NCBI GenBank assembly: GCA_964402965.1
Contig: CAYODY010000001.1
Span: 5,724 to 69,723, forward strand
Direction: 5' to 3'
Source: an uncultured Candidatus Saccharibacteria bacterium
GTDB lineage: Bacteria > Patescibacteriota > Doudnabacteria > UBA920
DNA length: 64,000 nt
Part shown: positions 5,325 through 52,598 of the stretch, piece after piece
How positions within the stretch are numbered: position 1 is the stretch's first letter
Layout of the letters: each line of letters begins with the position of its first letter
Position numbers and translations under genes: made by a program
The notes under the pieces: generated by a model
What the model saw: only the letters and a program-made list of their open reading frames with translations
The model's database searches: none
Told to the model about the DNA's origin: nothing

Positions 5325-6767
5325 ATGTCAGATGAATCTTTGCACCCCACAGGGGAACCTAAGAAACCGTTAATTGCGTCAGAACAAATGCGCAAGTTTT
5401 TAAATATGGAGTCTGGTCAATCACAGCAAGAACCACTACATGCGGGAGATATTCCACCAGACTTACCATTTTTAGAAACATTAGAAACTCCACCAAAAAA
5501 TGCTTTGGAAATAATGAGTGCAGGTGCAAATCCAAAAGTTGGAGAAGGGAAACATTCAAATCCAATCACTCAAATTTTGCGTCCTTCTACAGAAAAAGGC
5601 CACGAAGCATACGCGTTTGTTCTTTGGGCATTAAAGAGTATTGTTCCGTACGTTGTAATTTTCGCTATTGGGCTTGGCTTGTACTTTTTCTATTTCAGCG
5701 ATTTTTCTATTAACAATTTATTCAAGTCCAATAACTTAACAATTGAAAATGTTAGTACGACAACAAATGCAGATTTGGAAAAACTTAAGACTTCTGAAAA
5801 AATAAATTACGATGCTTGGATAAAACAATTTTTCTTTGAAGTAAATGATGCTGAAATTATTTCTATGGATACAGATGTATCTGGAAATGGTTTAACTAAC
5901 TTTGAAAAATATTTATTAAATTTAAATCCGAAAGTTTACAGTACTCGAGGGGGCAATCAGCCTGATGGGCAATTGGTAATAAATGGCACAAGTCCATGGA
6001 CCGGAAAACCTTTCACTGACAAACAAAAAGAATTAGTAGATAAATACTTAAATAAGGAAGTAATTAGTAATCGCATTACTGCTGCGGCATTAACACGTGG
6101 TGCAACAAAATTTGCGGAATATGTAAATCCTGATTCTCCATACTACATAACTCCAAGTACAGAACAAACCGGAGTACCTCAAACACCTGGTAGTTCAGGA
6201 ATCTATGAGCCAACAAATACAAACCCTGAAATTGTAAACAATCAAACGGCGGGGAATGTAGCACAGCAAACACAGAATCAATCTCAAGGAAATCTAAATT
6301 CAAACACAGATATCAATCTAAGTGTTCCTGGAAGAATAGAAATTCCTTCAAACAATATTTCAGTACCATTAATATGGACTACCGCTGTTGCAAATTTTGA
6401 AAAGGACTTAAAAAAGGGAGTTGTTCACTACCCAGGAACAGCGCTTCCAGGTCAAACTGGAACAAGTTACATTTCTGGACATTCCAGCGGATATCTTTGG
6501 GACAAGTCACCATACAAAACAATTTTTGCTGGTTTAGGAAATGTAAAAGATGGTACTTCGTTTACAGTTACAGTAACTCTTAAAAATGGAAAACAGGTTA
6601 GGTATAATTATGTTGTTGAACGTCGTGGGGAGTATGCAGCGAACGATCAAGCACAATTTGTGAACACAGCAGATTCTGTTGTAGCGCTATCTACATGTTG
6701 GCCAATAGGAACTACAGCAAAACGATTAGTTTTGTTTGGAAAACTCACTCAAACAGAGAATCTATAG
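5325..6767 (+). CDS. sortase-family transpeptidase (Cys type) with a long N-terminal cytoplasmic/low-complexity region and one TM helix
   Basis: The C-terminal ~150 aa carries the sortase catalytic triad context. This is VVHYPGTALPGQTGTSYISGHSS (His), ALSTCWPIG (the TLxTC-type Cys, codon tgt) and AKRLVLFG (Arg). A TM helix lies at about residues 100-125. Confidence 0.7.
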   Translation: MSDESLHPTGEPKKPLIASEQMRKFLNMESGQSQQEPLHAGDIPPDLPFLETLETPPKNALEIMSAGANPKVGEGKHSNPITQILRPSTEKGHEAYAFVLWALKSIVPYVVIFAIGLGLYFFYFSDFSINNLFKSNNLTIENVSTTTNADLEKLKTSEKINYDAWIKQFFFEVNDAEIISMDTDVSGNGLTNFEKYLLNLNPKVYSTRGGNQPDGQLVINGTSPWTGKPFTDKQKELVDKYLNKEVISNRITAAALTRGATKFAEYVNPDSPYYITPSTEQTGVPQTPGSSGIYEPTNTNPEIVNNQTAGNVAQQTQNQSQGNLNSNTDINLSVPGRIEIPSNNISVPLIWTTAVANFEKDLKKGVVHYPGTALPGQTGTSYISGHSSGYLWDKSPYKTIFAGLGNVKDGTSFTVTVTLKNGKQVRYNYVVERRGEYAANDQAQFVNTADSVVALSTCWPIGTTAKRLVLFGKLTQTENL

Positions 6768-6900: not shown

Positions 6901-7116
6901 TGGGTCATAGTTGAGTTTGGTGAGAAAACTGTACTCACAACCTATGGCTGATAGATTTATGTCCATCACCCTGAAATATTAACTTAGTCAGGGCTTTGGT
7001 GGACAATGATCTGTCTAATCAATATCAAACTGATAGTTAGCAGAAACTTTAGTAGGTTTGAACAATTGTTGTTTGAGTCGTTACTAAAGTACACAATTCC
7101 TGAGGAGGATAAAAAG

Positions 7117-8046
7117 ATGATTCAGAAATTTTTAATCGCAATATTTTTGCTGCTGGCGTTGTCAGTGGTCGGATTTGGCCAGGAATACAACCTGGTCAAG
7201 GTGCAGGACAACGGTGCTATACAGAAATGTGGCCCGTTGCCGGACTGGGACTTCTCAAAAGTCGTCCCATACAAGCCGCGATTCAGAACCGCAGCAGTCG
7301 GGTATGTTCGTGTCGAGAGATATAATAAAATCACTCTCGCTTGCGAACAAACGTCGTTGCCCAACTACCGTTCGAACAACGGTTATGGTTGGGTGCTAAA
7401 CGTCGAGGGAAGCCATTATGGTTTCACTAGTACTGGGCAAATTCGGTACCTTGGTACCGCTGATGGTGCTTACCTGAAATGTCACAACCACGTTGTGGGA
7501 TTTTGGGAGGTGAATGTGAATATTGTTGAGGAAAAGGAAGAATTTGTTCCTGTTCCGAAACCTTCGCCTTCACCTTCGCCCAGTCCCTCGCCTTCGCCGT
7601 TGCCTGTCGCACCGATTTGTAAAACGGTGAATGGTCAAGCCAACACTGTTGGTCTGACTATAGAGCAGGCCGTCAAGAGCGGTTTGCTTGTTGACGGAGA
7701 AGGAAACTGCGCCCAGCATCCTGAACCGGTGGTTCAGGAAAAAGTGAAGAAGAAAGGCGCTAACAAGTGGCTTTCTGCACTTTGTGGAGCCGCAGGTGGT
7801 GGGATAACCGCTTACCTGAGGACCGGACAGCTCGGCGGAACTCTAGCAGGTGCTGGAGTAGGCAGCGGTGCTGGCCTTGGTATAGGCTTCATTCCGGGTT
7901 CAAAAACCTGGTACGGTTGTTTTGGCGGCGCAGCGGGGTTGTTAATCCCGAAGAACGCCGTAAAGAACCAAAGTAACGGAGGAGGTCCAATCCGCGGTAG
8001 CGGAAACGGGCAAGGTGCGCCGGTCGTTAGGCCGACTCGCCAATAG
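7117..8046 (+). CDS. secreted protein with (PS)n linker and glycine-zipper C-terminus, encoded on a compositional (high-GC) island
   Basis: Start placed at ATG 7117, directly after a GAGGAGG RBS; the track ORF starts at 7006 in AT-rich sequence. Features in order are a signal peptide MIQKFLIAIFLLLALSVVGFG, a Cys-containing domain, PSPSPSPSPSPSPLP, a second Cys-containing segment and a Gly-rich hydrophobic tail (GAAGGGITAYL...GAGVGSGAGLGIGFIPG...GGAAGLLIP). GC content and codon usage (CTG, GGC, CCG) differ sharply from all neighbours. Confidence 0.6.
   Translation: MIQKFLIAIFLLLALSVVGFGQEYNLVKVQDNGAIQKCGPLPDWDFSKVVPYKPRFRTAAVGYVRVERYNKITLACEQTSLPNYRSNNGYGWVLNVEGSHYGFTSTGQIRYLGTADGAYLKCHNHVVGFWEVNVNIVEEKEEFVPVPKPSPSPSPSPSPSPLPVAPICKTVNGQANTVGLTIEQAVKSGLLVDGEGNCAQHPEPVVQEKVKKKGANKWLSALCGAAGGGITAYLRTGQLGGTLAGAGVGSGAGLGIGFIPGSKTWYGCFGGAAGLLIPKNAVKNQSNGGGPIRGSGNGQGAPVVRPTRQ
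7561..7602 (+). repeat. in-frame Pro-Ser dipeptide repeat coding tract
   Basis: ccttcgccttcaccttcgcccagtccctcgccttcgccg encodes PSPSPSPSPSPSP. Confidence 0.7.
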
Positions 8047-8209: not shown

Positions 8210-8935
8210 ATGAAAAAACTATCAGTCGTCATTCCAGCATATAACGAGGAAAAACGTATTGCTGAAACTTTGGCAAACATCGACAGTTACTTAGAAAAAC
8301 AGAGTTATGACTACGAAATTATCGTAGTTGTAAATAATTCAAAAGATAGAACTGTTGAAGTTGTAAATGAACTAGAAAAATCCACGATTCAAAAAGCGAC
8401 AGCTTTAAACTTAAAAGAAGGTGGAAAAGGAAACGCTGTTAAGCGTGGGATTTTAGAGAAGGCAACAGGGGACATAATTATGTTCATGGATGCCGACAAT
8501 GCTACTCCAATTAATGAGATTGAAAAGTTTTTACCATATTTTGATCAAGGTTTTGATGTAGTAATTGGTTCAAGATATACAAACCCAGACTTGGTTAAAG
8601 TACATCAGCCTTTTTACCGAATTGTTCTTTCAAGAATGAGTAACTTGCTTATTCAATTCTTAGCAGTTCCTGGGATTAAAGATACTCAACTTGGTTTTAA
8701 AGCTTTTACAAACAAAGCGGCAAAAGAAATATTTCCTATCGTTACCGTGCTTCGTTGGGGTTTCGACATGGAAGTTCTAACAATTGCATTGGCACGTGGG
8801 TTTAAGATTAAAGAAATTGGTGTGTCTTGGACAGAACATGGTGGCGGACACGTTCCATTAATCGCATATGTTGAATCTTTAATTGATCTTTTCAAAATTA
8901 AATTACGTTCAATTACTGGTAAATACAAAAAATAG
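8210..8935 (+). CDS. polyprenol-phosphate glycosyltransferase (GtrB/Dpm1-like GT2)
   Basis: MKKLSVVIPAYNEEKRIAETL ... FMDADNATP (DAD motif) ... GSRY. Length is 241 aa, and there is no large C-terminal membrane domain, as in the GtrB/DPM1 family. Confidence 0.8.
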   Translation: MKKLSVVIPAYNEEKRIAETLANIDSYLEKQSYDYEIIVVVNNSKDRTVEVVNELEKSTIQKATALNLKEGGKGNAVKRGILEKATGDIIMFMDADNATPINEIEKFLPYFDQGFDVVIGSRYTNPDLVKVHQPFYRIVLSRMSNLLIQFLAVPGIKDTQLGFKAFTNKAAKEIFPIVTVLRWGFDMEVLTIALARGFKIKEIGVSWTEHGGGHVPLIAYVESLIDLFKIKLRSITGKYKK

Positions 8936-9022
8936 AATTTTAAAATAGATTCTATTAGCTTGCAAATTTCTGAAACAATTCCTCAACTCCGAACGTTATA
9001 CTTACAAATATCCAAATTATAA

Positions 9023-10885
9023 ATGAATAAATTCTTAGTTAAATTTTCTTTTGGTTTTTTAATCGCCGCTGTTATGGGCGGTGGTTTTGCTTTTTTTAGT
9101 GTTGAAGCTCAAGCAAAATCAGGCGAGGTAAACTATGTTATTCAATTTAAAAATTCTGAGTCAGTTCAAAATGCTCAAACTGCAGATCCTCAAATTAATT
9201 TAGAAAAAATTTACGGTTTTGCATCGGATTCTAAATTCGGTAGTTACTACCGATTCAGTTCTGCCAAATCTTTGGAGCAAATACGACATGACTTTAATGG
9301 GTTGTATAAAATTTTACAAGTAGATAATTCAATTACAACAAGTCTAAAAACTTCTGTACTCACTCCGGACGATCCAGGGTTTACAAAAAATTCAGCAAAC
9401 ACAGACAAACAATGGGGTTTAGTAAAAGCCGGATTTTTAGATGCATGGCAAAAAAGCACAGGTGACAAAAAAACAATAATTGCAATTGTAGATACAGGTA
9501 TAGATGGTACTCACGAAGATTTAAGAAATGCAAAAATTGTTAAAGGTTACGATGTAGCTAGCAAAAGTATAATTTCAGGTAAATCAAATTCAGATGACAA
9601 CGGACACGGAACTTTAATCGCTGGAGTTATTGCAGGAACAGCAAATAATTCCAAAGGAATTGTCGGTGCTGGTTATAACTTAGGGCTAATGCCAATTAAA
9701 GCTCTGGACGCATCTGGTTCCGGTACTTCATCTTCAATCTCTCAAGCAATTGTTTGGGCAACAGATAAAGGCGCAAGTGTAATTAACTTGTCTTTAGGTG
9801 GCATGGGCTTTGGTCATGACACAGTATTGGCAGAAGCCATAAGCTATGCTTTTGCGAATAATGTTGTAATAATTGCTGCGGCAGGAAATGATGTAGCAGT
9901 TACCGGAGGAAATTTAGATGTTGATCCAGTTTTTCCCATTTGTGATGATAACGGTAAGAATATGATAATCGGAGTCACTGCAACAGACGTTAATGATTTA
10001 AAACCTTCATTTGCAAACTATGGTAAGGCATGTGTAGATGTCTCTGCACCGGGACGTAGGATACTTTCTACTATTAATCATGATCCTGCTACTGGTGGAA
10101 TTTCTCCAAACTCATATGCGTATGCATCTGGGACATCTCTAGCAGTTCCATTCGTTTCTGCAGAAGCAGGACTTTTAAAATCGCTATATCCAAAAGCAAC
10201 AAATAGACAAATTAGAGATCGTATTCTAGCAACAGCAGACAATGTAGATAGTTTAAATATTAGTCAGTGTGCCGGAGGTTCGTGTAGAGGATTCCTTGGT
10301 TCTGGCAGAATTAATGTTGCCGCAAGTTTAGTTACGCAAATAATTACTTTAAATGATGGAGACTTAGTACAAGAACAATCATCAGGAAATTTTTACTATA
10401 TAAACGGTGGGAAGAAACAGCTTGTTAGTCCATTTGTACGAAGTCAACGTTTTGCATTCACTCCAGCAAAACTTGTAACCCAAACAGATTTAGATATGTT
10501 CTCTGAAGGTTCATACGCAGAACCTCAAGACGGAACATTAGTGAAAAGTCCAAATGATGGCGCAGTGTATTACATGCAGTCCGGCTTGCGTAGACCATTA
10601 ACTTTTCAAGTTTTCACAATGCGAGGCTATAAGTTTTCTGACATAGTTACGCTAACTAACGTTGAAGTGAATTCTTGGGTAGAAGGTAGTTTCCTTACAC
10701 CCCCAGATAATATTTTAGTAAGAGGAGAAAAAAATAAAACTTTGTACGCAATTACGAACGGAGTTTTGCATCCAATGAACTATAAATTCTATGTTGAAAG
10801 AAATTTACAAAGTATGCCAATTGTAATTTTCCCAGACAAAGATATTCTAAAGTTTTCTATCGGAGATGCATACATAATTCAATAA
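9023..10885 (+). CDS. secreted subtilisin-like serine protease (S8) with C-terminal tandem repeat domain
   Basis: A signal peptide is present. The S8 triad motifs are AIVDTGIDGTHEDL (Asp), NGHGTLIAG (His) and GTSLAVPFVS (Ser). The last ~180 aa consist of 3-4 copies of a ~55-aa module (G..YYI.NG.K...). Confidence 0.85.
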   Translation: MNKFLVKFSFGFLIAAVMGGGFAFFSVEAQAKSGEVNYVIQFKNSESVQNAQTADPQINLEKIYGFASDSKFGSYYRFSSAKSLEQIRHDFNGLYKILQVDNSITTSLKTSVLTPDDPGFTKNSANTDKQWGLVKAGFLDAWQKSTGDKKTIIAIVDTGIDGTHEDLRNAKIVKGYDVASKSIISGKSNSDDNGHGTLIAGVIAGTANNSKGIVGAGYNLGLMPIKALDASGSGTSSSISQAIVWATDKGASVINLSLGGMGFGHDTVLAEAISYAFANNVVIIAAAGNDVAVTGGNLDVDPVFPICDDNGKNMIIGVTATDVNDLKPSFANYGKACVDVSAPGRRILSTINHDPATGGISPNSYAYASGTSLAVPFVSAEAGLLKSLYPKATNRQIRDRILATADNVDSLNISQCAGGSCRGFLGSGRINVAASLVTQIITLNDGDLVQEQSSGNFYYINGGKKQLVSPFVRSQRFAFTPAKLVTQTDLDMFSEGSYAEPQDGTLVKSPNDGAVYYMQSGLRRPLTFQVFTMRGYKFSDIVTLTNVEVNSWVEGSFLTPPDNILVRGEKNKTLYAITNGVLHPMNYKFYVERNLQSMPIVIFPDKDILKFSIGDAYIIQ

Positions 10886-10945
10886 ATTAAGTTGCATTCA
10901 AAGTAGTTTTCTAGTATTGTTAATATACCCATAAAATAAATTCGC

Positions 10946-12718
10946 ATGAAGAAACAAACATCATTTATAATTATCACAAGTTTAATTTTTTCGTTCTTAA
11001 TTAACGGAAATTTTGTTTATGCACAAGAAGCAATTCAGGCAGGCTTCACTCCAAATAATTTAATTGATGATAGTGTTTTCTCAAACACAAACACTTTTTC
11101 AAGTGCATCAGGTATACAGCAATTTTTGCAGAGCAAAGGAAGTGTTTTAGCTAATACAAGTGAGTCATTCGTTGCGCAACTCAAAGAACCAACAAGTACG
11201 ATTTTAAAACAGACTTTGGAAGACCCACAGCCAAACTTAAACCGTAACAGAACTGCTGCAGAATTAATTTATGATGCATCTCGTTCAAGTGGATTAAACG
11301 CACAAGTTATCTTAGTTACTCTTAATAAAGAACAAAGTTTAATTTCTGGTCGCCAAAATGCAACCCCTGAACAACTTCAACGCGCATTAGACTTCTCAAT
11401 GGGTTTTGGTTGTCCAGATAGCCAGCCTTGTGGAAGTATTTACCAAGGTTTTTATGCTCAACTTTTCGGTGGTGTGGATGCGGAAAACAATCGTTACTTG
11501 GGAGCTGCTAAATCTTTAATGAAGTCTTTTCAAACTCCAGGTGGTCGTGGACCATACTACAATGGAGGCACAAGTAGAGTCGGGGATACTATTGTGTTAG
11601 ATAACACACTTGGTGGGTATGAAGGGGTTCAACCTCAACAAACAGTTAAGCTTTCAAATGCTGCAACCGCTGCGCTGTACAGATACACTCCTCACGTTTT
11701 CAATGGTAATTACAATTTTTGGAGATTCTTTAAAGCATATTTCGGTGCTCCAAATTCCAATTCAGTGAATACAAATACCAGAGTGAAAAATGCAAACCTT
11801 ATTCGTGAATCATCATCTTCTCCAATGTACATAGTTGAGAACGGTGGTAAATATAGAATCGTTCCTTTTGTAGCAAAAGCTAGAAAGTTAGACACTTCAA
11901 AAGTAAAAAATGTTTCGTCCGATGTTTTAAATAGCTACAACACTTTAGGTTTAGCTGCTGCTCCAGACAACACTTTAATTAAGTACAATGGCGCGTACTA
12001 CGTCTTTAAAAATAATTTAAAGCAACAAGTTTCTTTGGAACAAATTAAAGCAATGAATTTAAACTCAGCGAACGCTATAGAAGTTGAGCTAGTTGACTTT
12101 GCTTCATTCAACTCGTCAGATCCTGCTCCTGCACAACCTACTACTCCTGCAACTCCACCTGCTACTCCTGCTCCACTACCTTCAGGTATACCACCAGCAG
12201 GCAGTTTGGTTAAAAGTGCTTCCTCACCAACAATATACTTATTGGAAAATGGTCAAAAGAAGCCAATGGACGGAGAAATCTTCAGAAATAGAAAATTCAC
12301 TTTTGCAAATTTGGTTACTCTAACTCAAGCTCAAATAGATAGTATTCCGCTAGGTCCTTTCCCAGCCCCATTAGATAATACATATTTTAAAGATAAACTA
12401 GGTCAGCTATATGTATATAGAAACGGTAAACTAAGTACGATTTCAAAAATCGCAGCAACTCAGCGTTTAATAACTCCTGACTTCACTTTTGGAGAAGATT
12501 TAGTTAAATCATTGCCAATGGGGTCGCCTGTAATGCCAAAAGATGGAACGCTCGTAAAAGGAGATAAAAAGGCAGAGGTATACTTAATTAGTGGAGGGTT
12601 GGCATCTCCAATGTCTGGACCTGCATTTACTGCAAGGAAGTTTACTTACAGCCAAATCCAAACAATTACCCAATCAGAAATGGACTCATTTTCTAAAGGT
12701 CCAGCAATTACTAAATAG
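10946..12718 (+). CDS. secreted repeat protein sharing the ~55-aa module with the upstream S8 protease; N-terminal domain of unknown function
   Basis: A signal peptide is present. It is followed by a ~250-aa N-terminal domain, about five copies of the same module as in 9023..10885, and a Pro/Thr linker PAPAQPTTPATPPATPAPLP. Confidence 0.6.
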   Translation: MKKQTSFIIITSLIFSFLINGNFVYAQEAIQAGFTPNNLIDDSVFSNTNTFSSASGIQQFLQSKGSVLANTSESFVAQLKEPTSTILKQTLEDPQPNLNRNRTAAELIYDASRSSGLNAQVILVTLNKEQSLISGRQNATPEQLQRALDFSMGFGCPDSQPCGSIYQGFYAQLFGGVDAENNRYLGAAKSLMKSFQTPGGRGPYYNGGTSRVGDTIVLDNTLGGYEGVQPQQTVKLSNAATAALYRYTPHVFNGNYNFWRFFKAYFGAPNSNSVNTNTRVKNANLIRESSSSPMYIVENGGKYRIVPFVAKARKLDTSKVKNVSSDVLNSYNTLGLAAAPDNTLIKYNGAYYVFKNNLKQQVSLEQIKAMNLNSANAIEVELVDFASFNSSDPAPAQPTTPATPPATPAPLPSGIPPAGSLVKSASSPTIYLLENGQKKPMDGEIFRNRKFTFANLVTLTQAQIDSIPLGPFPAPLDNTYFKDKLGQLYVYRNGKLSTISKIAATQRLITPDFTFGEDLVKSLPMGSPVMPKDGTLVKGDKKAEVYLISGGLASPMSGPAFTARKFTYSQIQTITQSEMDSFSKGPAITK

Positions 12719-12744
12719 TAAAACTTGAAATTATTATTAGAAAA

Positions 12745-12771
12745 GCCCTCGTGAAAACGAGGACTTTTTTT
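12745..12771 (+). terminator. rho-independent terminator
   Basis: CCTCGT-gaaa-ACGAGG hairpin followed by T7. Confidence 0.6.
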
Positions 12772-12802
12772 ATAACTCATAAATTGATACAATGAATACA
12801 AC

Positions 12803-14242
12803 ATGTCCAGCCCATCCAAAAATATATTATGGTTAACAGTTTCTAGGGTAGTTTCTCTACTCCTTTTGTTTATTGCCTACAGACAACTGTTCAAATATTT
12901 AGGACCATACAACTATGGTCAATTTCAGTTTGTACTTTCGTATGTAACTCTATTTGGAGTGGTTATTGACTTTGGTTTACAGCAGTACATTGTAAAAAAG
13001 ATGAGCGAAGATCGTTCAAGGGCGAAACACTATTTCCATAATTTTTTAGCAGTAGAGGTTTTATTGGTCGCGCTAGTATATGCCGCAATGATCGGTGTTG
13101 CTCTATTTAACGGCTATGAACCAATAGTTTTTAAAGCCATTTTGGTGGCAGGTTTTGGAACTGCTATAACTGGGTTGTCCTATCCGTTCTTGGCTGTTGT
13201 TACTGCGTTCTATGATTTAAAAAAAGCTGCGTTTATTAATTTCTTGGCATCGGCTGTAAACGTAACAATAATTTTTGTGACTATCTATGTTGGTGGAAGT
13301 ATTGTAATGCTAACAACACAACAGGGGATTGTCGCAATTCTTTCTTTTATAATTTACTATCAGTTTGTACAGAAGTATATAGGCAAGCCTCATGTTCTGA
13401 AAGGAATGAGCGAGCTAGATTTCTCTTTAGTAAAAACTATGTTTGCGGCAGCATTGCCGTTCGCTATTCTAGTCGGGTTTAGCACTCTATACAATAGAAT
13501 TGATGTAGTTTTAATTAAACACATGTTGGGTTACACAGAAACAGGTCTATACTCAGCTGCGTATAAATTTTATGATTTGGTAGCATTTTTCCCAGCGGTT
13601 GTTTCTCATGCATTGTATCCATTGTTTGCAAGTTTAATGGTGACTCGTGACTTAGTACAAGTTAGATCTATTTTGGAAAAATATCTGCGTTTCATGATGA
13701 GTCTTGCTATACCAATGGGAGTCGGTGGAACTATTCTTGCCAAACCAATAATCACATTGCTCACAAATAGCAATGAGTATGCTGGTGCTGCTCCTGTCCT
13801 ATCTATTTTAGTTTGGGCGCCAGCAATTCTATTTGTTTACATAATTGTGAATTCTCTGGTTATTTCTCAATTAACAAAATGGGCAACTGCAATAACTGGC
13901 GTAAATGTCCTGGTTAATATAGTTGGAAACCTAATTCTATTACCAAGAATAGGAATTATTGCAGCAGCAATAATGACTGTCGTTTCAGAATTTTTGCAGG
14001 GTCTGTTCTATTTCTATTTCGTGCGCAAGAAAATTACTGATTTTAAATTTATTTCATATTTGTGGAAACCGATTATAGCTAGTGCAGTTATGGGATTAAG
14101 TATTTGGTATATACAGTATTTGCACGTTCTCATTTTAGTAGCAATTGCAGTTGTAGTTTACGCGGCATGTTTGTTCGTTCTTCGTTTCTTCCAAAAAGAC
14201 GATATCGCATTTATTAAGGGATTGCTTGGTCGTGGTGTTTAA
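12803..14242 (+). CDS. Wzx-like polysaccharide/teichoic-acid flippase (MOP superfamily)
   Basis: 479 aa with about 12-14 predicted TM helices. The N-terminal region is typical of the polysaccharide biosynthesis protein (Wzx/RfbX) family. Confidence 0.7.
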   Translation: MSSPSKNILWLTVSRVVSLLLLFIAYRQLFKYLGPYNYGQFQFVLSYVTLFGVVIDFGLQQYIVKKMSEDRSRAKHYFHNFLAVEVLLVALVYAAMIGVALFNGYEPIVFKAILVAGFGTAITGLSYPFLAVVTAFYDLKKAAFINFLASAVNVTIIFVTIYVGGSIVMLTTQQGIVAILSFIIYYQFVQKYIGKPHVLKGMSELDFSLVKTMFAAALPFAILVGFSTLYNRIDVVLIKHMLGYTETGLYSAAYKFYDLVAFFPAVVSHALYPLFASLMVTRDLVQVRSILEKYLRFMMSLAIPMGVGGTILAKPIITLLTNSNEYAGAAPVLSILVWAPAILFVYIIVNSLVISQLTKWATAITGVNVLVNIVGNLILLPRIGIIAAAIMTVVSEFLQGLFYFYFVRKKITDFKFISYLWKPIIASAVMGLSIWYIQYLHVLILVAIAVVVYAACLFVLRFFQKDDIAFIKGLLGRGV

Positions 14243-14756
14243 AAAAGAGAAACAATCTATTGAGCCAATTCGAGTGATGGTTTTTGGTACGTTCGATATG
14301 GTCCATGCAGGACATAGAAATATGTTTCAACAGGCAAGGGATTTGGTAAACCACTTTAATTCAAGAAATTCAGGAGTAAAAAACAATTCAGGAGTAAAAA
14401 GTTCTACTGCCGAAAACAAATTAAAACCGTATCTAATAGTTTCTATTGCAAGAGATAGAAACGTAAAACGCATTAAGGGCAGGAATGCGTCGCGCGGGGA
14501 GAGGGCGAGGATGGAGATGGTGGGTAAGGCGCGGGGTGTAAATAAAGTAGTTCTAGGTGCAACGGGGAATCATATTCCGCATATAGTGAAAGAAAAACCT
14601 GATATAATTGCATTAGGTTATGATCAAACCGCTTATGTCTCAGGATTAAAATCTGAGCTTAAAAAAGTTGGCTTGAAAACTAAAGTTGTTAGACTTAAGC
14701 CATATAAAGAACATATATATAAAACATCATTTTTAAAAAATAGAAAGTTAAAATAA
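14226..14756 (+). CDS. cytidylyltransferase-superfamily nucleotidyltransferase (RibL/TagD-like)
   Basis: GTFDMVHAGH is the (T/H)xGH nucleotidyltransferase motif. IVSIARDRNVKRIKGR and KPDIIALGYDQT resemble archaeal RibL FMN adenylyltransferase and TagD. The more likely start is ATG 14277 (VMVFGTFD). The gene contains an in-frame 18-bp tandem duplication and a short GC spike. Confidence 0.6.
   Translation: MVVVFKKEKQSIEPIRVMVFGTFDMVHAGHRNMFQQARDLVNHFNSRNSGVKNNSGVKSSTAENKLKPYLIVSIARDRNVKRIKGRNASRGERARMEMVGKARGVNKVVLGATGNHIPHIVKEKPDIIALGYDQTAYVSGLKSELKKVGLKTKVVRLKPYKEHIYKTSFLKNRKLK
14368..14403 (+). repeat. 18-bp in-frame tandem duplication
   Basis: aattcaggagtaaaaaac followed by aattcaggagtaaaaagt, encoding NSGVKN NSGVKS. 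Confidence 0.7.
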
Positions 14757-35052: not shown

Positions 35053-38000
35053 ATGAAATATATGAACAATTACGAATCTAGTCCGCGTTCAGTTTCAAGT
35101 TATGGCACTCAAGCAAAGCCGTCTTTTCGAGACTTGGCGCTTAAGAGTGCTGTTTTTGTAACTGCATTTTCGATGGTCTTTTCAGTTTTCATGCCAATAG
35201 CAAAAACTGCACAAGCCAACCATGATCCATTCAATGGTCAGGTATTTGTTAAAGAAAATAAAAACCATAAGGTAGATATTTGTCACGCTCCAGAAGGTCA
35301 AGGTGGAGCAAAATATAATCAGCAAAATGTGAGTATTGATTCAATTGTAAAAAACAATGGACATGACTCTCATTCTTCAGATGTAATCCCACCATTTCAC
35401 TACAAAGAAAAAAATAACTCTCAAAATGTAATTTCTTATAGTGGCAAAAATTGGAATTCATTAAACGAAGCTATTTGGAATGCAGATTGTAAAGTAGCAA
35501 AGTTAACTCTACTTAAAAAAGTTCAGGGTGGAGACGCTCTAGCTACTAGCTGGACTCTAAACGCTGATGGACCAGTAGATTTATCTGGTGCAACAGGCAC
35601 AAGCGCTGTTTCAAATAAAACAGTTCCTGCTGCTCAATACACTCTTTCAGAAACTGGCCCATCTGGATACTCAGCATCAAATTGGGAATGTGTTAACAAA
35701 TCTACTCAACCGGTTGCTGTAACTGGAGGAAATATTGTTACTTTAACAGATAGTTCCGAAGTAACATGTACAATTACTAATACTTTTATTGATGTGGAAA
35801 TCGATCCATGTCTTTTAGATAACATTGTAAATGAAGATTGTAACCCAGATCCATGTGATGAGTTAACTAAGAATTTGCTCACAAATCAGGTAATGGATTG
35901 TAATCCATGTGATTTAGAATCTGCAGTAAATAACCCAGATTGTAACCCAGATCCTTGTGATCCTAATATCGTCGCATCAAAGCATGATTCAGAATCAAAT
36001 AATGAAAATGATAATTGTCCAAAGCCAAAAAAGCGCTATTTAGTTATTAAAAAAGTTTGGCAAGGTTTTGAAGGTGAAGCAGGTCCTTCTAATAAAGGTG
36101 AAATTCAGGTTAATGTAAACTCAGACCTAGATGAAGAAGAATGTGATTACGACAAAAAAGGGGAGTTTTCTTGTAAAATCCGTTTCACCGAAGGCACAAC
36201 TGTTTCTATTGATGAAGAAAATATTCCAGCTGGATGGACAGTAGATCAGTCAACAGTAGGCGACATAGTTCCAAATTGTGATGAAGATTCCGAAGATGAT
36301 AATGTTGGGCCTTTCAAACTATTTGGCAAAAAAGACGACAAGGGTGATGAAGATGATAAAGATGATAAAGATGATAAGGATTGTACACATACAATCGTAA
36401 ATGTTTACAAACCAGCGGAACCTTGTGGAACAGAATTAGTAGCGAACGGAAATTTTGAACTTCCAGAAGTTAAGGATGGTGCTAATTGGGAAGTTTTCCC
36501 ATCAGGTACTCCAGGAATGGGTTGGTCTGTTAATTGGGTTCGCGAAAGCAAAGACTCTCCAGTTCCAGCTAATATGGAATTGCATGAAGGCGTAAATGGA
36601 TGGCTAGCACATAGCAGTAACCAATACGCTGAATTGGATTCAGACTGGGGAGGTCCTTCTAGTAATCAAAATGGCGAAGATGCATCTGTTGTTATGTACC
36701 AAGATTTAATTACTGTACCAGGCGGAACATACACAGTTAGCTTATGGACATCTCCACGTCCAGGCCAAGGCAATGCTCAAAACAAGACTGAAGTCAAAAT
36801 GGGTTCTACATTGCTAGATACTATTATTGAAGATGGGTCTTCAAACAGCAATACTGTTTGGACTAAGCACACTTACAGTTTTGTAGCAGAAGAATCAATG
36901 ACCCGTTTAAGCATTACAGACTTAGGTGTTGGTAATACTCTAGGTGGTTTTGTAGATGATGTTTCTGTAAAACAAGATTGTCTTTCAAACGTTACAATCT
37001 GTAAATATGATAATACTGAAACTCCACTATCTAACTGGAATGTATTATTAAAGGGCGATTTGTTAGAAACAGTTACTGTAAATTCTAATAGTTCAACTGG
37101 GGCTAACTCTGTAAACGCACTGGAATCAGGCCAAGATTATTTGGTTGAAGTTTCAGGGACATGGCAAAATCGTACATTCGAAACTGTAGATGCAAGTTAC
37201 ACAACTCCAGACAGCTGGTCCACAGTACTTCCTGCCCCTCAAGGTGGTTACCCGGATGACTTGTTGGAAACTCAAATAAATGGAAATTTTGTAAATTGGG
37301 GTCCTTACTCAAGCGGTCATAAATATCAGCTAACAATGGCTGGTAATGGAAGTACAGCAAATTTCAGAGTATTCGATGGTGATGCAAATACTAATACTCA
37401 ATTCCCAGATTGGTTCGGAGATAATATTGGATCTTTAACAGTTAAGATTTACCCTGTATACCAAGGAATCACTGGTGTTAGTGGTTGTGTAACTTTAGAA
37501 AATGTTCCGTACAACAGCTATAAGCTTGATGAAATAATGCAAGCAGGTTGGGAAAACCAATCCGGTCAAAACACAACTTCTGTTGTAGATTCATCTACTG
37601 AAACATTTAATCTAGTAAACAAATGTACTGGTGAAGAATGTCGTCAAACAAAACCACAACTACACTTAATTAAAGTAGTGTGTGATGATTTCTCTGACAT
37701 TCAAGGAAACTATAGTGCAGATGAATATGATGATACTAATGGTAACTATGTTCACTTCAACAATTACCCAGAATTTAATAACGTTGTAAAACCTGTTAAC
37801 CCAGAAGAAATCCCAAGTTCCGAATCTGGTTGTGAAACAAGATCTGGTTGGAGCTTTACTCTTTCTTCTGATCAAAACCAAGATCAGGATGTACAAACAG
37901 TGACTACTGGTGAATCAGGAGAATATGTTGGCGATCTACCAGAAAGCGGAGTTCTATGGGTTAGCGAAGTAATGCAAAAAGGTTACGACTTTGGTGCCAT

Positions 38001-39318
38001 CCGTTGTTACAACGATGCTCTAAATGGGGATAACCTAGAATTCATAAACTTAGAAGGTGATTTGCCAGCAAATGTTTACTGTATTGCATACAACATTGAA
38101 CAAATAGTGCCTTGTGAAGTTACTCCTATTTACGCGGTAAGTGGTGCAGCAACACAATTCCTTGGATTAAAAGAAGGTTCTGCTCCAACTGATTTGAAAA
38201 ACCCAGCAGATTATTCTGGTGGTTCAGCAGGTGCTGTCCCTGTAACTCCAACTGGTTATGCAGGAGCATGGGATGGTTCGGCTTTAGATCCTATTATGAC
38301 TGCCTTACCTGGAGCAGTTTACGTGAGCAATGACACGGTACAACCAACCTTTGGTGGTGGTGCAGGTCACGATGGTTCAGTGGATTCATGGAGACTGTTC
38401 AGCGATACCTTTACTATTCCAGCTGGTGCAACAGGAATATCTTCACCAAGTTTGCACTTTGCAGCGGATAATGAAGTTTCAGTATTCTTTGATGATGTCT
38501 TAATTGGTTCAAGCGCAAGCTTTGGTTCTGTAACCAGCGTTGCTCTTCCGTCACTAACACCAGGAACTCACACATTGAAGTTTGCTGTTAAGAATTACGC
38601 TTTTGACCAAACAAATAACCCAACAGGTGTTATCTATAAGTTAGATACAATTACATATGACTGTGATAGTCATGGCGACTCTCACCGCAACCTAGCTGGT
38701 ATGGTTTATTTGGATGAAGACCAGGATGAAACTAAAGATCCTGAAGAAAATCCAATAGAAGGTCTAACAGTTAAACTTATACGCGCTACTGCAGATGATG
38801 AAGATGAAGACTTGAATTTGGAAGAAGAAGAAATTGCTTCTGATGTCTCTGATGTAGATGGTAATTACTCATTTAGTGATGTAGCTGATGGATGTTATAT
38901 CCTACGTGAAGTCCCTGAATCTTACCAACAAACAGAACCTCCTGTAACACATGAGTATTATGTTAAAGTAGGGGATGCAGATTGTAACTTTAATCTAGTT
39001 ACTTTCGCAGACTACTTGTTTAAAACAGCTAACGCAGCTGACTCTTCTACAGTATTCGTTGCGTACACAGGACAACCACTAAACTTTGGAAACTTTTTGT
39101 CAGGTGGTTCTAATGGTGGTGGTTCAAGAGGCGGCTCTAGTGGAGGTTCTACTCCATTAAATCCACAAGTTTTGGGTGATACCACAACAGTACCTAGCGT
39201 ACTAGGAGCTACTACAGAGCTTCCTCGCACAGGTTCTCCAATCTCAGTACTATTCGTACTAATCACCCTGTTAAGTGGGGCAGTTTTGGCACCAAAAGTG
39301 CTTAAAATTACTCGTTAA
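35053..39318 (+). CDS. giant LPXTG-anchored surface adhesin (1421 aa) with Cys-rich and acidic repeats and Cna-B/SpaA-like modules
   Basis: An N-terminal signal/TM is present. There are DCNPDPCD-type Cys repeats (about 35.80-35.98 kb) and a DDKGDEDDKDDKDDKD acidic repeat (about 36.33-36.38 kb). Prealbumin-like Cna-B motifs are present (SDVDGNYSFSDVADGCYILREVPESYQQTEP; ...VTCTITNTF). A Gly/Ser linker precedes the sorting signal LPRTG (39220-39234), a hydrophobic stretch and the basic tail KVLKITR. Confidence 0.75.
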   Translation: MKYMNNYESSPRSVSSYGTQAKPSFRDLALKSAVFVTAFSMVFSVFMPIAKTAQANHDPFNGQVFVKENKNHKVDICHAPEGQGGAKYNQQNVSIDSIVKNNGHDSHSSDVIPPFHYKEKNNSQNVISYSGKNWNSLNEAIWNADCKVAKLTLLKKVQGGDALATSWTLNADGPVDLSGATGTSAVSNKTVPAAQYTLSETGPSGYSASNWECVNKSTQPVAVTGGNIVTLTDSSEVTCTITNTFIDVEIDPCLLDNIVNEDCNPDPCDELTKNLLTNQVMDCNPCDLESAVNNPDCNPDPCDPNIVASKHDSESNNENDNCPKPKKRYLVIKKVWQGFEGEAGPSNKGEIQVNVNSDLDEEECDYDKKGEFSCKIRFTEGTTVSIDEENIPAGWTVDQSTVGDIVPNCDEDSEDDNVGPFKLFGKKDDKGDEDDKDDKDDKDCTHTIVNVYKPAEPCGTELVANGNFELPEVKDGANWEVFPSGTPGMGWSVNWVRESKDSPVPANMELHEGVNGWLAHSSNQYAELDSDWGGPSSNQNGEDASVVMYQDLITVPGGTYTVSLWTSPRPGQGNAQNKTEVKMGSTLLDTIIEDGSSNSNTVWTKHTYSFVAEESMTRLSITDLGVGNTLGGFVDDVSVKQDCLSNVTICKYDNTETPLSNWNVLLKGDLLETVTVNSNSSTGANSVNALESGQDYLVEVSGTWQNRTFETVDASYTTPDSWSTVLPAPQGGYPDDLLETQINGNFVNWGPYSSGHKYQLTMAGNGSTANFRVFDGDANTNTQFPDWFGDNIGSLTVKIYPVYQGITGVSGCVTLENVPYNSYKLDEIMQAGWENQSGQNTTSVVDSSTETFNLVNKCTGEECRQTKPQLHLIKVVCDDFSDIQGNYSADEYDDTNGNYVHFNNYPEFNNVVKPVNPEEIPSSESGCETRSGWSFTLSSDQNQDQDVQTVTTGESGEYVGDLPESGVLWVSEVMQKGYDFGAIRCYNDALNGDNLEFINLEGDLPANVYCIAYNIEQIVPCEVTPIYAVSGAATQFLGLKEGSAPTDLKNPADYSGGSAGAVPVTPTGYAGAWDGSALDPIMTALPGAVYVSNDTVQPTFGGGAGHDGSVDSWRLFSDTFTIPAGATGISSPSLHFAADNEVSVFFDDVLIGSSASFGSVTSVALPSLTPGTHTLKFAVKNYAFDQTNNPTGVIYKLDTITYDCDSHGDSHRNLAGMVYLDEDQDETKDPEENPIEGLTVKLIRATADDEDEDLNLEEEEIASDVSDVDGNYSFSDVADGCYILREVPESYQQTEPPVTHEYYVKVGDADCNFNLVTFADYLFKTANAADSSTVFVAYTGQPLNFGNFLSGGSNGGGSRGGSSGGSTPLNPQVLGDTTTVPSVLGATTELPRTGSPISVLFVLITLLSGAVLAPKVLKITR

Positions 39319-42182: not shown

Positions 42183-43091
42183 ATGCTGCCTAAATTTCCA
42201 GTATTCAAAAAATTAGAACTTAGTGACCAAATAGACATCGAAAAAATTACATCAAAATATCAACCTTATTCCGATTTTGATTTTTTTAGTATGTGGTCTT
42301 GGGATGTACTTGGAACTTACAGGATTTCTGAGTTGAACGGGAATTTAGTAGTAGTACTTCTAGACCACTTTACAAATGATCCTGTCTACTCATTTATAGG
42401 TAATAATCAATCAGAAAAAACAATTAAGCAACTCTTCGCTTTTTTTGAAATTATTGATAACCCTACTCCTGTAATGAAATTAATCCCTGAAATTTCTCTC
42501 CAGGATGTAAACTTTAAAAAATACCTCATAGAAATTGATTTAAATAATTACGACTATGTTTATAGTACAATGGAGTTATCAACCTATGAAGGATCTAAAT
42601 TCAGCGGGAAAAGAAAATTATCGAATAGATTTTTTAAAAACCATAATAACGTTGAATTGAAATTGCATGATTTAAAATCAGATTTTGTTAAGTCTGAAAT
42701 AATTAATTTTTCAAAATATTGGAAAAGCCAAAAGACAACGGAAGTTGATGGGTTGGATTTACAAAAAGAATTGACTGCGATTCAGAGGTTTTTGGATGCT
42801 AATTTCGAAGAATCGTTTTGCACTCTTTTGTATGCTGATCAAAAAATGGTTGGGTATCAATTATTTACTCCGTCAACGCACGGATATGCAATTTGCCACT
42901 TCGGTAAATCAGACGTTAATTTTAATGGGGCCTTTGAATATATGATGAGTGAAAGTTGCAAATTGCTGGTTAATAAAAATATACAATTCCTTAATACAGA
43001 AGAAGATTTGGGAATACAGCAGCTGAGGTTTACCAAAAATTCATATCATCCAATTACACTACTCAGGAAATACACAATCAAAACCTTGTAA
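42183..43091 (+). CDS. hypothetical protein, possibly DUF2156-like (MprF C-terminal aminoacyl-transferase-like fold)
   Basis: 302 aa, soluble. The N-terminal motif YSDFDFFSMWSWDV recalls the DUF2156/LPG_synthase_C family. The assignment is from memory and weak. Confidence 0.35.
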   Translation: MLPKFPVFKKLELSDQIDIEKITSKYQPYSDFDFFSMWSWDVLGTYRISELNGNLVVVLLDHFTNDPVYSFIGNNQSEKTIKQLFAFFEIIDNPTPVMKLIPEISLQDVNFKKYLIEIDLNNYDYVYSTMELSTYEGSKFSGKRKLSNRFFKNHNNVELKLHDLKSDFVKSEIINFSKYWKSQKTTEVDGLDLQKELTAIQRFLDANFEESFCTLLYADQKMVGYQLFTPSTHGYAICHFGKSDVNFNGAFEYMMSESCKLLVNKNIQFLNTEEDLGIQQLRFTKNSYHPITLLRKYTIKTL

Positions 43092-51245: not shown

Positions 51246-52565
51246 ATGATAGATATTGCAGGTTTAAAAATTAGTAATATAACAAAGCGCGAGTTACTAG
51301 AACAAGTCCGTGAACGTGTCGCTAAGAAGCAAAAAACTTTTGTAACAACACCGTACTCAGAGTTTTTGTACGCGAGCATGCGTAACCCAGAAGTCCGGGA
51401 AATGTTAAATAAGTCAGATTTCGCAATACCAGATGGGATTGGGATTCTTTGGGCTCATCTATTTTTGTCTCGTCCTTTTAGTTTTAAGAATTTCTACCTA
51501 AAAATTATCCAGTCGTGGTTTCAGGTGGTGTGGACAGGGGCATCTATTATTTTCAAACCGAGTTTGCTGTATAGAGAGATTCCAGAAAAAATTGTTGGAG
51601 CAGATTTAATTTGGGATTTGTGTGCAATGGCAGAACGCGAGAATTTTTCTGTGTTTTTATTAGGTGGCTTTGGTCATACTACGGAAATTGCAAAACAGAA
51701 ACTTTTACAAAAATTTCCTAAACTGCAAATTGCAGGGACTTCAAATAAGAATCCTAAAGATGTTGAAGTTTTGGATCAAATCAATTCTGTTAAACCAGAT
51801 TTGCTTTTTGTAGCTTTCGGGCCAATAAAACAAGAGAAGTGGATTGCGGAAAACTTACAAAATATTTCAGCGAGTTTTGCAATTGGTTTAGGAGGAACTT
51901 TTGACTACATAGCAGGAACTAAAAAAGCACCACCAAAATTTATCCGTCGTATTGGATTGGAATGGTTGTATCGGTTAGTTACTCAACCAAGTAGGTTAGC
52001 AAGAATTTACAAAGCGGTTGTTGGTTTAATAATTTCGCTCATGCGACACAAAGTTTTTTCTTCAATGCCTTTTCGAAAAAATGTAATAGCGGTTGTTCTA
52101 AATGATGAGGGTAAAATTTTTATTGCCCAACGGAATCCCAGAGATCCGTACTTAGTAAAAACAGCAGGTGGAATTATGCTTGAGAAGTATGCAAATTATT
52201 GGCAGTTCGCTCGTGGTGAAGCTGAAAAAAATGAAACCTTAGAGGAAACAGGTAGACGTGAGTTGATGGAAGAAACTGGAATTACATCTGTTGAGCTAAA
52301 AAAAATTTCTAAACAAACTAGCTCGTATCTTTGGAACAATTCATTAAGACCTTTATTTGGGAATATATACAAAAAAAAGGGACAAAATCAAAACATTGTC
52401 TATTTTAATTTTGTTGGAGAAGATTCAGAAATCAAGTTAGACCAAAGGGAGTTAGTCAATTATAAATGGGTAAAAATGAGTGATTTAGATTCAACTTTGC
52501 ACCCGGAACAAGCAGACGTAATTCGTATAATAAAAGAAGATCTGGGTGTTGAAAATCAGGCTTAA
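51246..52565 (+). CDS. fusion protein: WecB/TagA/CpsF-family glycosyltransferase (GT26) plus C-terminal NUDIX hydrolase
   Basis: GT26 motifs FAIPDGIGILWA, FLLGGFG and GGTFDY in the first ~260 aa. The Nudix box GEAEKNETLEETGRRELMEETGI (G-x5-E-x7-REUxEExGU) follows in the last ~150 aa. Confidence 0.7.
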   Translation: MIDIAGLKISNITKRELLEQVRERVAKKQKTFVTTPYSEFLYASMRNPEVREMLNKSDFAIPDGIGILWAHLFLSRPFSFKNFYLKIIQSWFQVVWTGASIIFKPSLLYREIPEKIVGADLIWDLCAMAERENFSVFLLGGFGHTTEIAKQKLLQKFPKLQIAGTSNKNPKDVEVLDQINSVKPDLLFVAFGPIKQEKWIAENLQNISASFAIGLGGTFDYIAGTKKAPPKFIRRIGLEWLYRLVTQPSRLARIYKAVVGLIISLMRHKVFSSMPFRKNVIAVVLNDEGKIFIAQRNPRDPYLVKTAGGIMLEKYANYWQFARGEAEKNETLEETGRRELMEETGITSVELKKISKQTSSYLWNNSLRPLFGNIYKKKGQNQNIVYFNFVGEDSEIKLDQRELVNYKWVKMSDLDSTLHPEQADVIRIIKEDLGVENQA

Positions 52566-52598
52566 ACTTGCTATAATTAAGCTCTAAATTAGAAATAG

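Follow-up and report, generated by a model that had tools for sequence, protein, structure and literature searches.

Here we analyse a stretch of 64,000 nucleotides (nt) of DNA, hereafter called the window, from an uncultured Candidatus Saccharibacteria bacterium (GTDB lineage Bacteria; Patescibacteriota; Doudnabacteria; UBA920; GenBank assembly GCA_964402965.1, contig CAYODY010000001.1, positions 5,724 to 69,723 of the forward strand). The focus is on two adjacent open reading frames (ORFs) whose products carry the same tandem module of 55-60 amino acids (aa): ORF A (9023-10885, + strand, 620 aa), which encodes an S8 protease with three C-terminal copies of the module, and ORF B (10946-12718, + strand, 590 aa), which encodes a conserved protein with five. 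We will show that the module is, with high confidence, a free-standing homologue of the repeat domain of EccB, a protein of the type VII secretion system (T7SS). As to its function, the module is probably a mobile EccB-type repeat that is used in tandem arrays for the non-covalent targeting of enzymes to the cell wall and their retention there, where both the binding and its ligand are what we infer from the proteins to which the module is fused and from the envelope context of the genes.

The tandem module common to ORF A and ORF B is real. A first-pass annotation, made from the letters of the DNA, had described a module of ~55 aa in both proteins and placed its start at 10343, which is residue 441 of ORF A and lies near the start of the first copy at residue 445. 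All copies lie on the + strand. In ORF A they are A1 (10355..10525, residues 445-501), A2 (10526..10702, residues 502-560) and A3 (10703..10882, residues 561-620). In ORF B, the modules B1 (11789..11962, residues 282-339) and B2 (11963..12127, residues 340-394) are followed by a Pro/Thr-rich linker (12128..12193, + strand, residues 395-416), disordered with a predicted local distance difference test score (pLDDT) below 50 at residues 398-411, and then by B3 (12194..12370, residues 417-475), B4 (12371..12538, residues 476-531) and the C-terminal B5 (12539..12715, residues 532-590). A2, B3 and B5 are of a canonical subtype; A1, A3, B1 and the divergent B2 are of position-specific ones.

The repeats survive statistical repeat detection, also when the test is made non-circular. 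A profile built from the B modules alone finds ORF A with E=7e-23, and one built from the A modules alone finds ORF B with E=1e-31. With a profile from 93 modules of unrelated proteins, seven of the eight copies are recovered, at independent E-values (i-E) of 8.5e-9 (A1), 3.5e-18 (A2), 6.3e-5 (A3), 1e-8 (B1), 9.9e-6 (B2), 3.4e-18 (B3) and 3.4e-15 (B5). The copy missed by this external profile is the highly divergent B4 (i-E 21), which is known by its fold and position only. In Smith-Waterman comparisons against 300 shuffles, most pairs among A1, A2, A3, B1, B3 and B5 have z = 5-24, with the exceptions A1-A3, A2-B1 and A3-B1 at z about 2, and B2 and B4 are weak throughout (z <= 4.5). The module was not found in any other ORF of the window. 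Nor was a tandem repeat of modules found at the DNA level, which means that the copies are old duplications; the sole exception is a short and imperfect repeat at 12121-12181, in the DNA that encodes the linker after B2 and before B3. Along B, a strong module is followed by a weak one (B1/B2, B3/B4), and this alternation recurs in a protein with 16 copies (P0125).

The evidence for the EccB relationship comes from both structure and sequence. An AlphaFold model of A2 alone, calculated with an alignment of 51 sequences, has a pLDDT of 91.3 and the order strand-strand-strand-helix-strand-helix. The model of full-length ORF B (pLDDT 89.3; predicted template modelling score, pTM, 0.51) shows the same order in four of the five B modules; in B4, with strands at 479-482, 488-492 and 495-499 and helices at 501-506 and 517-522, the fourth strand is not called by DSSP. 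When a single module is compared with the PDB by Foldseek, EccB1, EccB3 and EccB5 make up nine of the top 12 matches, with probabilities of 0.87-0.99 and query TM-scores (TMq) of 0.61-0.74. The first-pass annotation had proposed this very comparison. With full-length B as the query, all 11 matches at E<=1e-3 are EccB (E 8.8e-8 to 3.8e-5).

At the sequence level, earlier module profiles of 8 and 51 sequences gave no PDB sequence match at E<=10. The family-wide profile of 94 modules, searched against 177,635 PDB sequences, has EccB1 as its top two matches (E=0.001 and 0.0014), aligned at residues 7-60 and 339-376 in the chains' own numbering, which are taken to be the repeats R1 and R4. An hhalign comparison of the module profile with EccB1 R1 gives a probability of 85% with 50 columns in register, and in a BLASTP comparison with the EccB1 R1 fragment the A3 stretch LYAITNGVLHPM is seen to resemble LYVLLSGQLHPV of R1. 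In the PDB, the repeats R1-R4 of EccB are the sole significant structural matches of the module and its top sequence-profile match. The Pfam EccB model, furthermore, scores 61 bits (cutoff 27) on a protein consisting of a CHAP domain plus modules, and its best stretch there coincides with a module. Two relatives were checked residue by residue, and in these no models other than the whole-protein EccB ones coincide with modules; some distant module proteins exceed the Pfam EccB cutoff through their summed repeats.

The structure of the EccB repeat has been known since 2013-2016; in EccB1, each repeat consists of a four-stranded sheet and two helices and has a length of about 50-57 aa (PMC4769845). 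In EccB1/3/5 (PDB 4kk7, 3x3m, 5cyu, 6sgy, 7np7), the repeats are like the module in their ~50-60 aa and in their small sheet with two helices, and EccB is like the ORF A and ORF B proteins in being extracytoplasmic and in having several copies per protein. The arrangement is a different one. EccB has an N-terminal transmembrane helix, a central beta-sheet core and 2+2 flanking repeats in one rigid body (PMC4769845), whereas ORF A and ORF B have a signal peptide, an enzyme or other domain and a linear array, with three and five copies, respectively, and up to 16 elsewhere, unlike the four repeats of EccB. EccB also sits in a T7SS gene cluster, whereas no T7SS gene (EccC, EccD, MycP, WXG100) was found among the 22 window ORFs scanned. 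Neither ORF A nor ORF B matches PF05108 or TIGR03919 even at E<=1, and the best score of the B orthologues against the EccB model is only E=0.031. ORF A and ORF B are not EccB family members, since they fall under the cutoffs of the EccB models, are without transmembrane helix and core, and have no T7SS gene near them among these 22 ORFs; it is the repeat domain alone that they have in common with EccB.

It is important to point out that the module has no entry of its own among the named domain families. The first-pass annotation could not place it in SLH, CWB, LysM, SH3b or PKD, and we come to the same result: no Pfam or NCBIfam domain model matches it. Pfam searches with each of the eight single modules give nothing at E<=10, the full ORF A and ORF B proteins have no SLH, CW_binding_1/2, LysM, SH3b, PG_binding, SPOR or PKD match at E<=1, and in 48 module-rich relatives there is no Pfam or NCBIfam domain model that matches most of them, which is what one would expect of a family devoted to the module. 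Pfam gave no confident repeat-family match, because no such Pfam repeat family exists. The earlier label "unassigned" is therefore right for the named domain families and wrong in so far as the module is a homologue of EccB R1-R4. We found no paper on the repeat outside T7SS or on EccB together with Patescibacteria, and neither a named domain family nor a paper for a free-standing mobile module on secreted enzymes or for its abundance in Patescibacteria. InterPro and Gene3D presumably carry superfamily entries derived from the EccB structures and may already label these proteins. The fold itself is already known, and what is new, as far as we have found, is its mobile free-standing use and its abundance in Patescibacteria.

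The module is very widespread. HMMER, run exhaustively over 1.84 billion representatives of 50%-identity clusters, finds the module in 6,128 proteins at E<=1e-3, of which 2,431 reach E<=1e-10 and 281 reach E<=1e-30, a count that may include EccB itself; a single protein has up to 16 copies. When homologues were sought through a word index, the short module profile gave only 1 match and the C-terminus of the protease only 3. The named source lineages belong to the candidate phyla radiation (CPR)/Patescibacteria (Doudnabacteria, Wirthbacteria and "Patescibacteria group"), and the source names of 20 module proteins added little to these CPR lineages. In this way an identity is given to a "dark" domain family of considerable size, with at least 6,128 representatives, which is so far annotated as nothing, and the link to a solved fold improves the annotation of the surface proteins of Patescibacteria, which is of relevance to their epibiotic lifestyle.

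The partners of the module were counted in the 48 highest-scoring, repeat-rich proteins, a biased sample, in which it is fused mainly to peptidoglycan hydrolases and to S8 proteases (SpoIID 14, Amidase_2 12, Peptidase_S8 7, Glucosaminidase 2), and further to RHS/toxin and Ig-like domains. A separate scan protein by protein revealed fusions to CHAP and CAP, and several module proteins match NCBIfam peptidoglycan-hydrolase models. In 105 of 149 proteins, no more than 30 aa separate the end of the array from the C-terminus. The C-terminal position that the first-pass annotation had emphasized is accordingly correct for ORF A and ORF B and does not hold in general, as the SpoIID fusions carry the array N-terminal of the enzyme.

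Relatives of the module occur also in phages. The best matches in the viral structure library BFVD (E=7e-6, TMq 0.88) come from phages of Streptomyces and Rhodococcus and are small proteins annotated as hypothetical (LukeCage A0A345MGB2, Weasels2 A0A1I9SA71), and the fold is seen weakly in uncultured-phage models named CHAP, amidase and lysozyme (E 0.06-0.4; probabilities 0.98, 0.93 and 0.77). By tblastn against annotated GenBank phages, the only matches are to small Streptomyces-phage proteins, likewise hypothetical (Wofford gp67, Comrade gp46 and others); in Wofford (NC_048722.1) a small hypothetical protein made of the module is encoded at 52121-52594, and in Comrade (NC_048728.1) at 42210-42512. 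The Streptomyces and Rhodococcus phage proteins are single domains of ~100 aa, while ORF A and ORF B instead carry arrays on enzymes. The Streptomyces phages with the module are large (~130 kb), and phrog_9616 also matches module A2.

The two genes form a conserved pair. Protein B has 685 full-length homologues of 40-60% identity, all annotated as "hypothetical", and is present in 279 GTDB species-representative genomes, almost all labelled Patescibacteria, Doudnabacteria or Saccharibacteria. Of the 68 loci whose sequence extends far enough upstream, 57 have an S8 protease directly upstream of B on the same strand, and in these 57 it always has three modules. The B orthologues have 3-8 modules, most often five; in P0003, one of the longer ones, which was inspected closely, the extra module lies directly 3' of the Pro/Thr linker. 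Across 40 loci, A1, A3, B1 and B2 each form a subtype cluster of their own, and the canonical subtype brings together A2, B3, B5 and the additional modules that the longer orthologues have.

In the mechanism that we favour, the secreted ORF A and ORF B proteins would reach the outside of the cytoplasm by means of their signal peptides, and the module arrays would then keep the two enzymes in the cell wall without a covalent bond. Each unit would bind weakly and several together avidly, as with other wall-binding repeats, and the ligand would be the glycan strands of peptidoglycan or an attached wall polymer. The first-pass annotation had suggested a wall or glycan anchor. This is still the most likely function, because the fusion partners are mainly peptidoglycan hydrolases, and the envelope cassette in which the gene pair is embedded also speaks for it, while the binding itself is something that we infer. 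LysM, SH3b, SLH, CW_binding_1/2, Cpl-7 and PlyCB resemble the module in being short tandem units, usually terminal and variable in copy number, in occurring on secreted proteins, and in having the same kinds of partners, namely amidases, glucosaminidases, CHAP peptidases, lytic transglycosylases and proteases. The LysM, SH3b, SLH and CW_binding families differ from it in that Pfam indicates no sequence relationship. EccB1 R1 weakly resembles PlyCB, a wall-binding subunit from phage (PMC4769845). Because most partners of the free-standing copies are peptidoglycan hydrolases, our results give independent comparative support to the suggestion that the EccB repeats engage the cell wall (PMC4769845). 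The finding is useful for annotation and offers a lead, open to testing, on what the EccB repeats do; it does not amount to a new kind of system.

A number of observations weigh against wall binding or against the comparison behind it. The E-values of the single-module Foldseek matches are marginal (0.065-0.4), as is expected because the module has only 59 residues. PlyCB (4F87) is not among the top 50 Foldseek matches of the module, the module is absent from the lysins in the annotated GenBank phages searched by tblastn, and the census of partners is drawn from a biased sample. Wall binding by EccB is, by the authors' own statement, a suggestion only (PMC4769845), and the same applies to the module. 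The EccB repeats pack on each other and on the core domain (PMC4769845), and they are found in what the titles of entries 7nps and 7np7 call the "periplasmic assembly" of ESX-5; given this packing and assembly, the fold would suit a role in protein-protein contacts or as a scaffold just as well. Finally, each module position has its orthologues and its own subtype in other species (40 loci), which agrees better with a fixed architecture than with binding beads that could replace one another.

The modules could accordingly be structural or oligomerization units that make up a rigid elongated stalk or an assembly, for example a complex of the protease with B formed through the canonical A2 with B3/B5. 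We judge this to be somewhat unlikely. It would agree with EccB1, in which R1/R4 and R2/R3 pair up into a continuous hydrophobic core (PMC4769845), with the ESX-5 periplasmic assembly that the EccB periplasmic domains build according to the entry titles, with the subtype-specific positions kept over 40 loci, and with the strict conservation of the A-B pair, in which A2 is nearer to B3/B5 than to A1 or A3. The alternation of strong and weak modules in B and in the 16-copy P0125 hints at a two-module super-repeat that recalls how R1 pairs with R4 and R2 with R3 in EccB1, which would also suit an assembly. What such a role leaves unexplained, however, is the repeated fusion to unrelated peptidoglycan hydrolases, in many architectures and with 3-16 copies. 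Moreover, the copy number varies from 3 to 8 among the B orthologues, and the Pro/Thr linkers together with the low pTM of 0.51 suggest flexible arrays instead of a single rigid body.

Another option is that the modules do bind the wall but that their ligand is a teichoic-acid-like secondary glycopolymer made by the flanking cassette instead of peptidoglycan. The pair is embedded in a conserved same-strand block (window 8210-14756) that consists of a family 2 glycosyltransferase (GT2), the S8 protease with its three modules, B, a Wzx/MurJ-like flippase and a cytidylyltransferase. Among the 80 related loci (L001-L080), the GT2 flanks the pair in 63, the flippase in 63 and the cytidylyltransferase in 53, and further glycosyltransferases and a Wzy_C protein lie near the pair in the window. 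The locus is one for an envelope glycopolymer, in agreement with the wall-polysaccharide locus of the first-pass annotation. Analogues for a glycopolymer ligand are SLH domains, with a pyruvylated polymer, and choline-binding repeats, with teichoic acid. Nevertheless, we regard this option as unlikely. The module is found in many other contexts, with 6,128 representatives, in Streptomyces phages and in the EccB of actinobacteria, and this breadth makes peptidoglycan the more likely shared ligand. In addition, the flippase weakly matches MurJ, which is the lipid II flippase, so the cassette itself may concern peptidoglycan.

That chance or composition merely mimics repeats here, or that the module is a divergent form of SLH, CW_binding, LysM, SH3b, PG_binding, SPOR or PKD, can practically be discarded: B4 alone escapes the sequence methods, while the cross-protein profiles (E=7e-23 and 1e-31), the external profile with its seven of eight copies, the 2,431 library proteins at E<=1e-10, the empty Pfam scans (E<=10 for single modules, E<=1 for the named families on the full proteins) and EccB as the only Pfam family to coincide with modules among the 48 relatives, in the two proteins checked, all speak against it. 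The single-module Pfam scans, the library search and the non-circular profiles together exclude both variants.

We now consider the parts of the two proteins outside the arrays. The N-terminus of ORF A (9023..9115, + strand, residues 1-31) is signal-peptide-like, with a likely cleavage after AQA, and so is that of ORF B (10946..11023, + strand, residues 1-26), with a likely cleavage after VYA; both were read from the sequence, and residues 2-19 of ORF B form a helix in the AlphaFold model. LPXTG is absent from both proteins. That both are secreted, as the first-pass annotation had it, is supported by these N-termini. The Peptidase_S8 catalytic domain of ORF A (9467..10255, + strand, residues 149-411; Pfam PF00082, E=1.5e-44) has the triad motifs DTG at 157, HGT at 195 and GTS at 370, and among solved structures it is closest to Ak.1 protease (E=6.5e-41), thermitase (E=1.4e-36) and subtilisins. 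ORF A thus appears to encode an active-looking protease of the subtilisin/thermitase type. Its top NCBIfam model is the T7SS mycosin, with 175 bits, under the cutoff of 279; this match is judged to be non-specific, given the score below the cutoff and Ak.1 protease, thermitase and subtilisins as the nearest structures. Identity as a mycosin (a MycP-EccB fusion) was rejected, there being no mycosin among the 60 best PDB matches.

For ORF B, the Pfam scan at E<=1 is empty and NCBIfam gives no meaningful match. Its conserved N-terminal domain (11024..11761, + strand, residues 27-272, 245 aa) is confidently modelled by AlphaFold and has no Pfam, PDB-sequence or PHROG match. Invariant in 74 homologues of B are K128-E129-Q130, with E129 within NKEQS, as well as C156, C162, H250 and N253-F258 (NGNYNF). 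With full-length B, Foldseek gives weak matches to SltB2 (7qvd, probability 0.15), LytB (7pj4, glycoside hydrolase family 73, probability 0.23) and SltB1, a weak hint that the domain might have a lysozyme-like fold. A role in cleaving wall glycans seems plausible, and we flag the domain as a candidate new wall-active enzyme domain.

Taking these parts together, one may think of the EccB-type repeat as an ancient general binder of peptidoglycan or wall polymer in envelopes of the monoderm type and as the main non-covalent anchor by which Patescibacteria fasten their wall-remodelling enzymes, and of which EccB would have gained four copies to fix the secretion machine in the wall. The S8 protease and B would then be a dedicated wall-remodelling duo whose common canonical subtype directs both to one site in the wall, and the N-terminal domain of B would be a new peptidoglycan-cleaving fold. 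This broader scenario is possible, and we put it forward as a tentative one.

The gap of 60 nt between the two genes contains no terminator-like hairpin in a consensus scan, which is consistent with co-transcription of A and B, and the same kind of scan, which is the only basis for this feature, places a terminator-like hairpin with a T-run 3' of ORF B (12747..12762, + strand). The 22 window ORFs scanned include glycosyltransferases, a sortase, a flippase and housekeeping genes, among others. Between the sortase (5325-6767, 480 aa, with the Sortase domain in its C-terminal part) and the conserved block lies an ORF of 346 aa (7006-8046), containing a (Pro-Ser)n linker and rich in Gly in its C-terminal region, which has no Pfam match and is present in only three of the 80 related loci. 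The contrast drawn earlier between non-covalent anchoring and the sortase route is a reasonable one, as the window encodes both the sortase and an LPRTG substrate and ORF A and ORF B are without such a signal. This substrate is a surface protein of 1,421 aa with a SpaA/prealbumin fold (35053-39318), which has LPRTG at residue 1390, followed by a hydrophobic stretch and a basic tail (KVLKITR), and which by these features is a predicted canonical sortase substrate.

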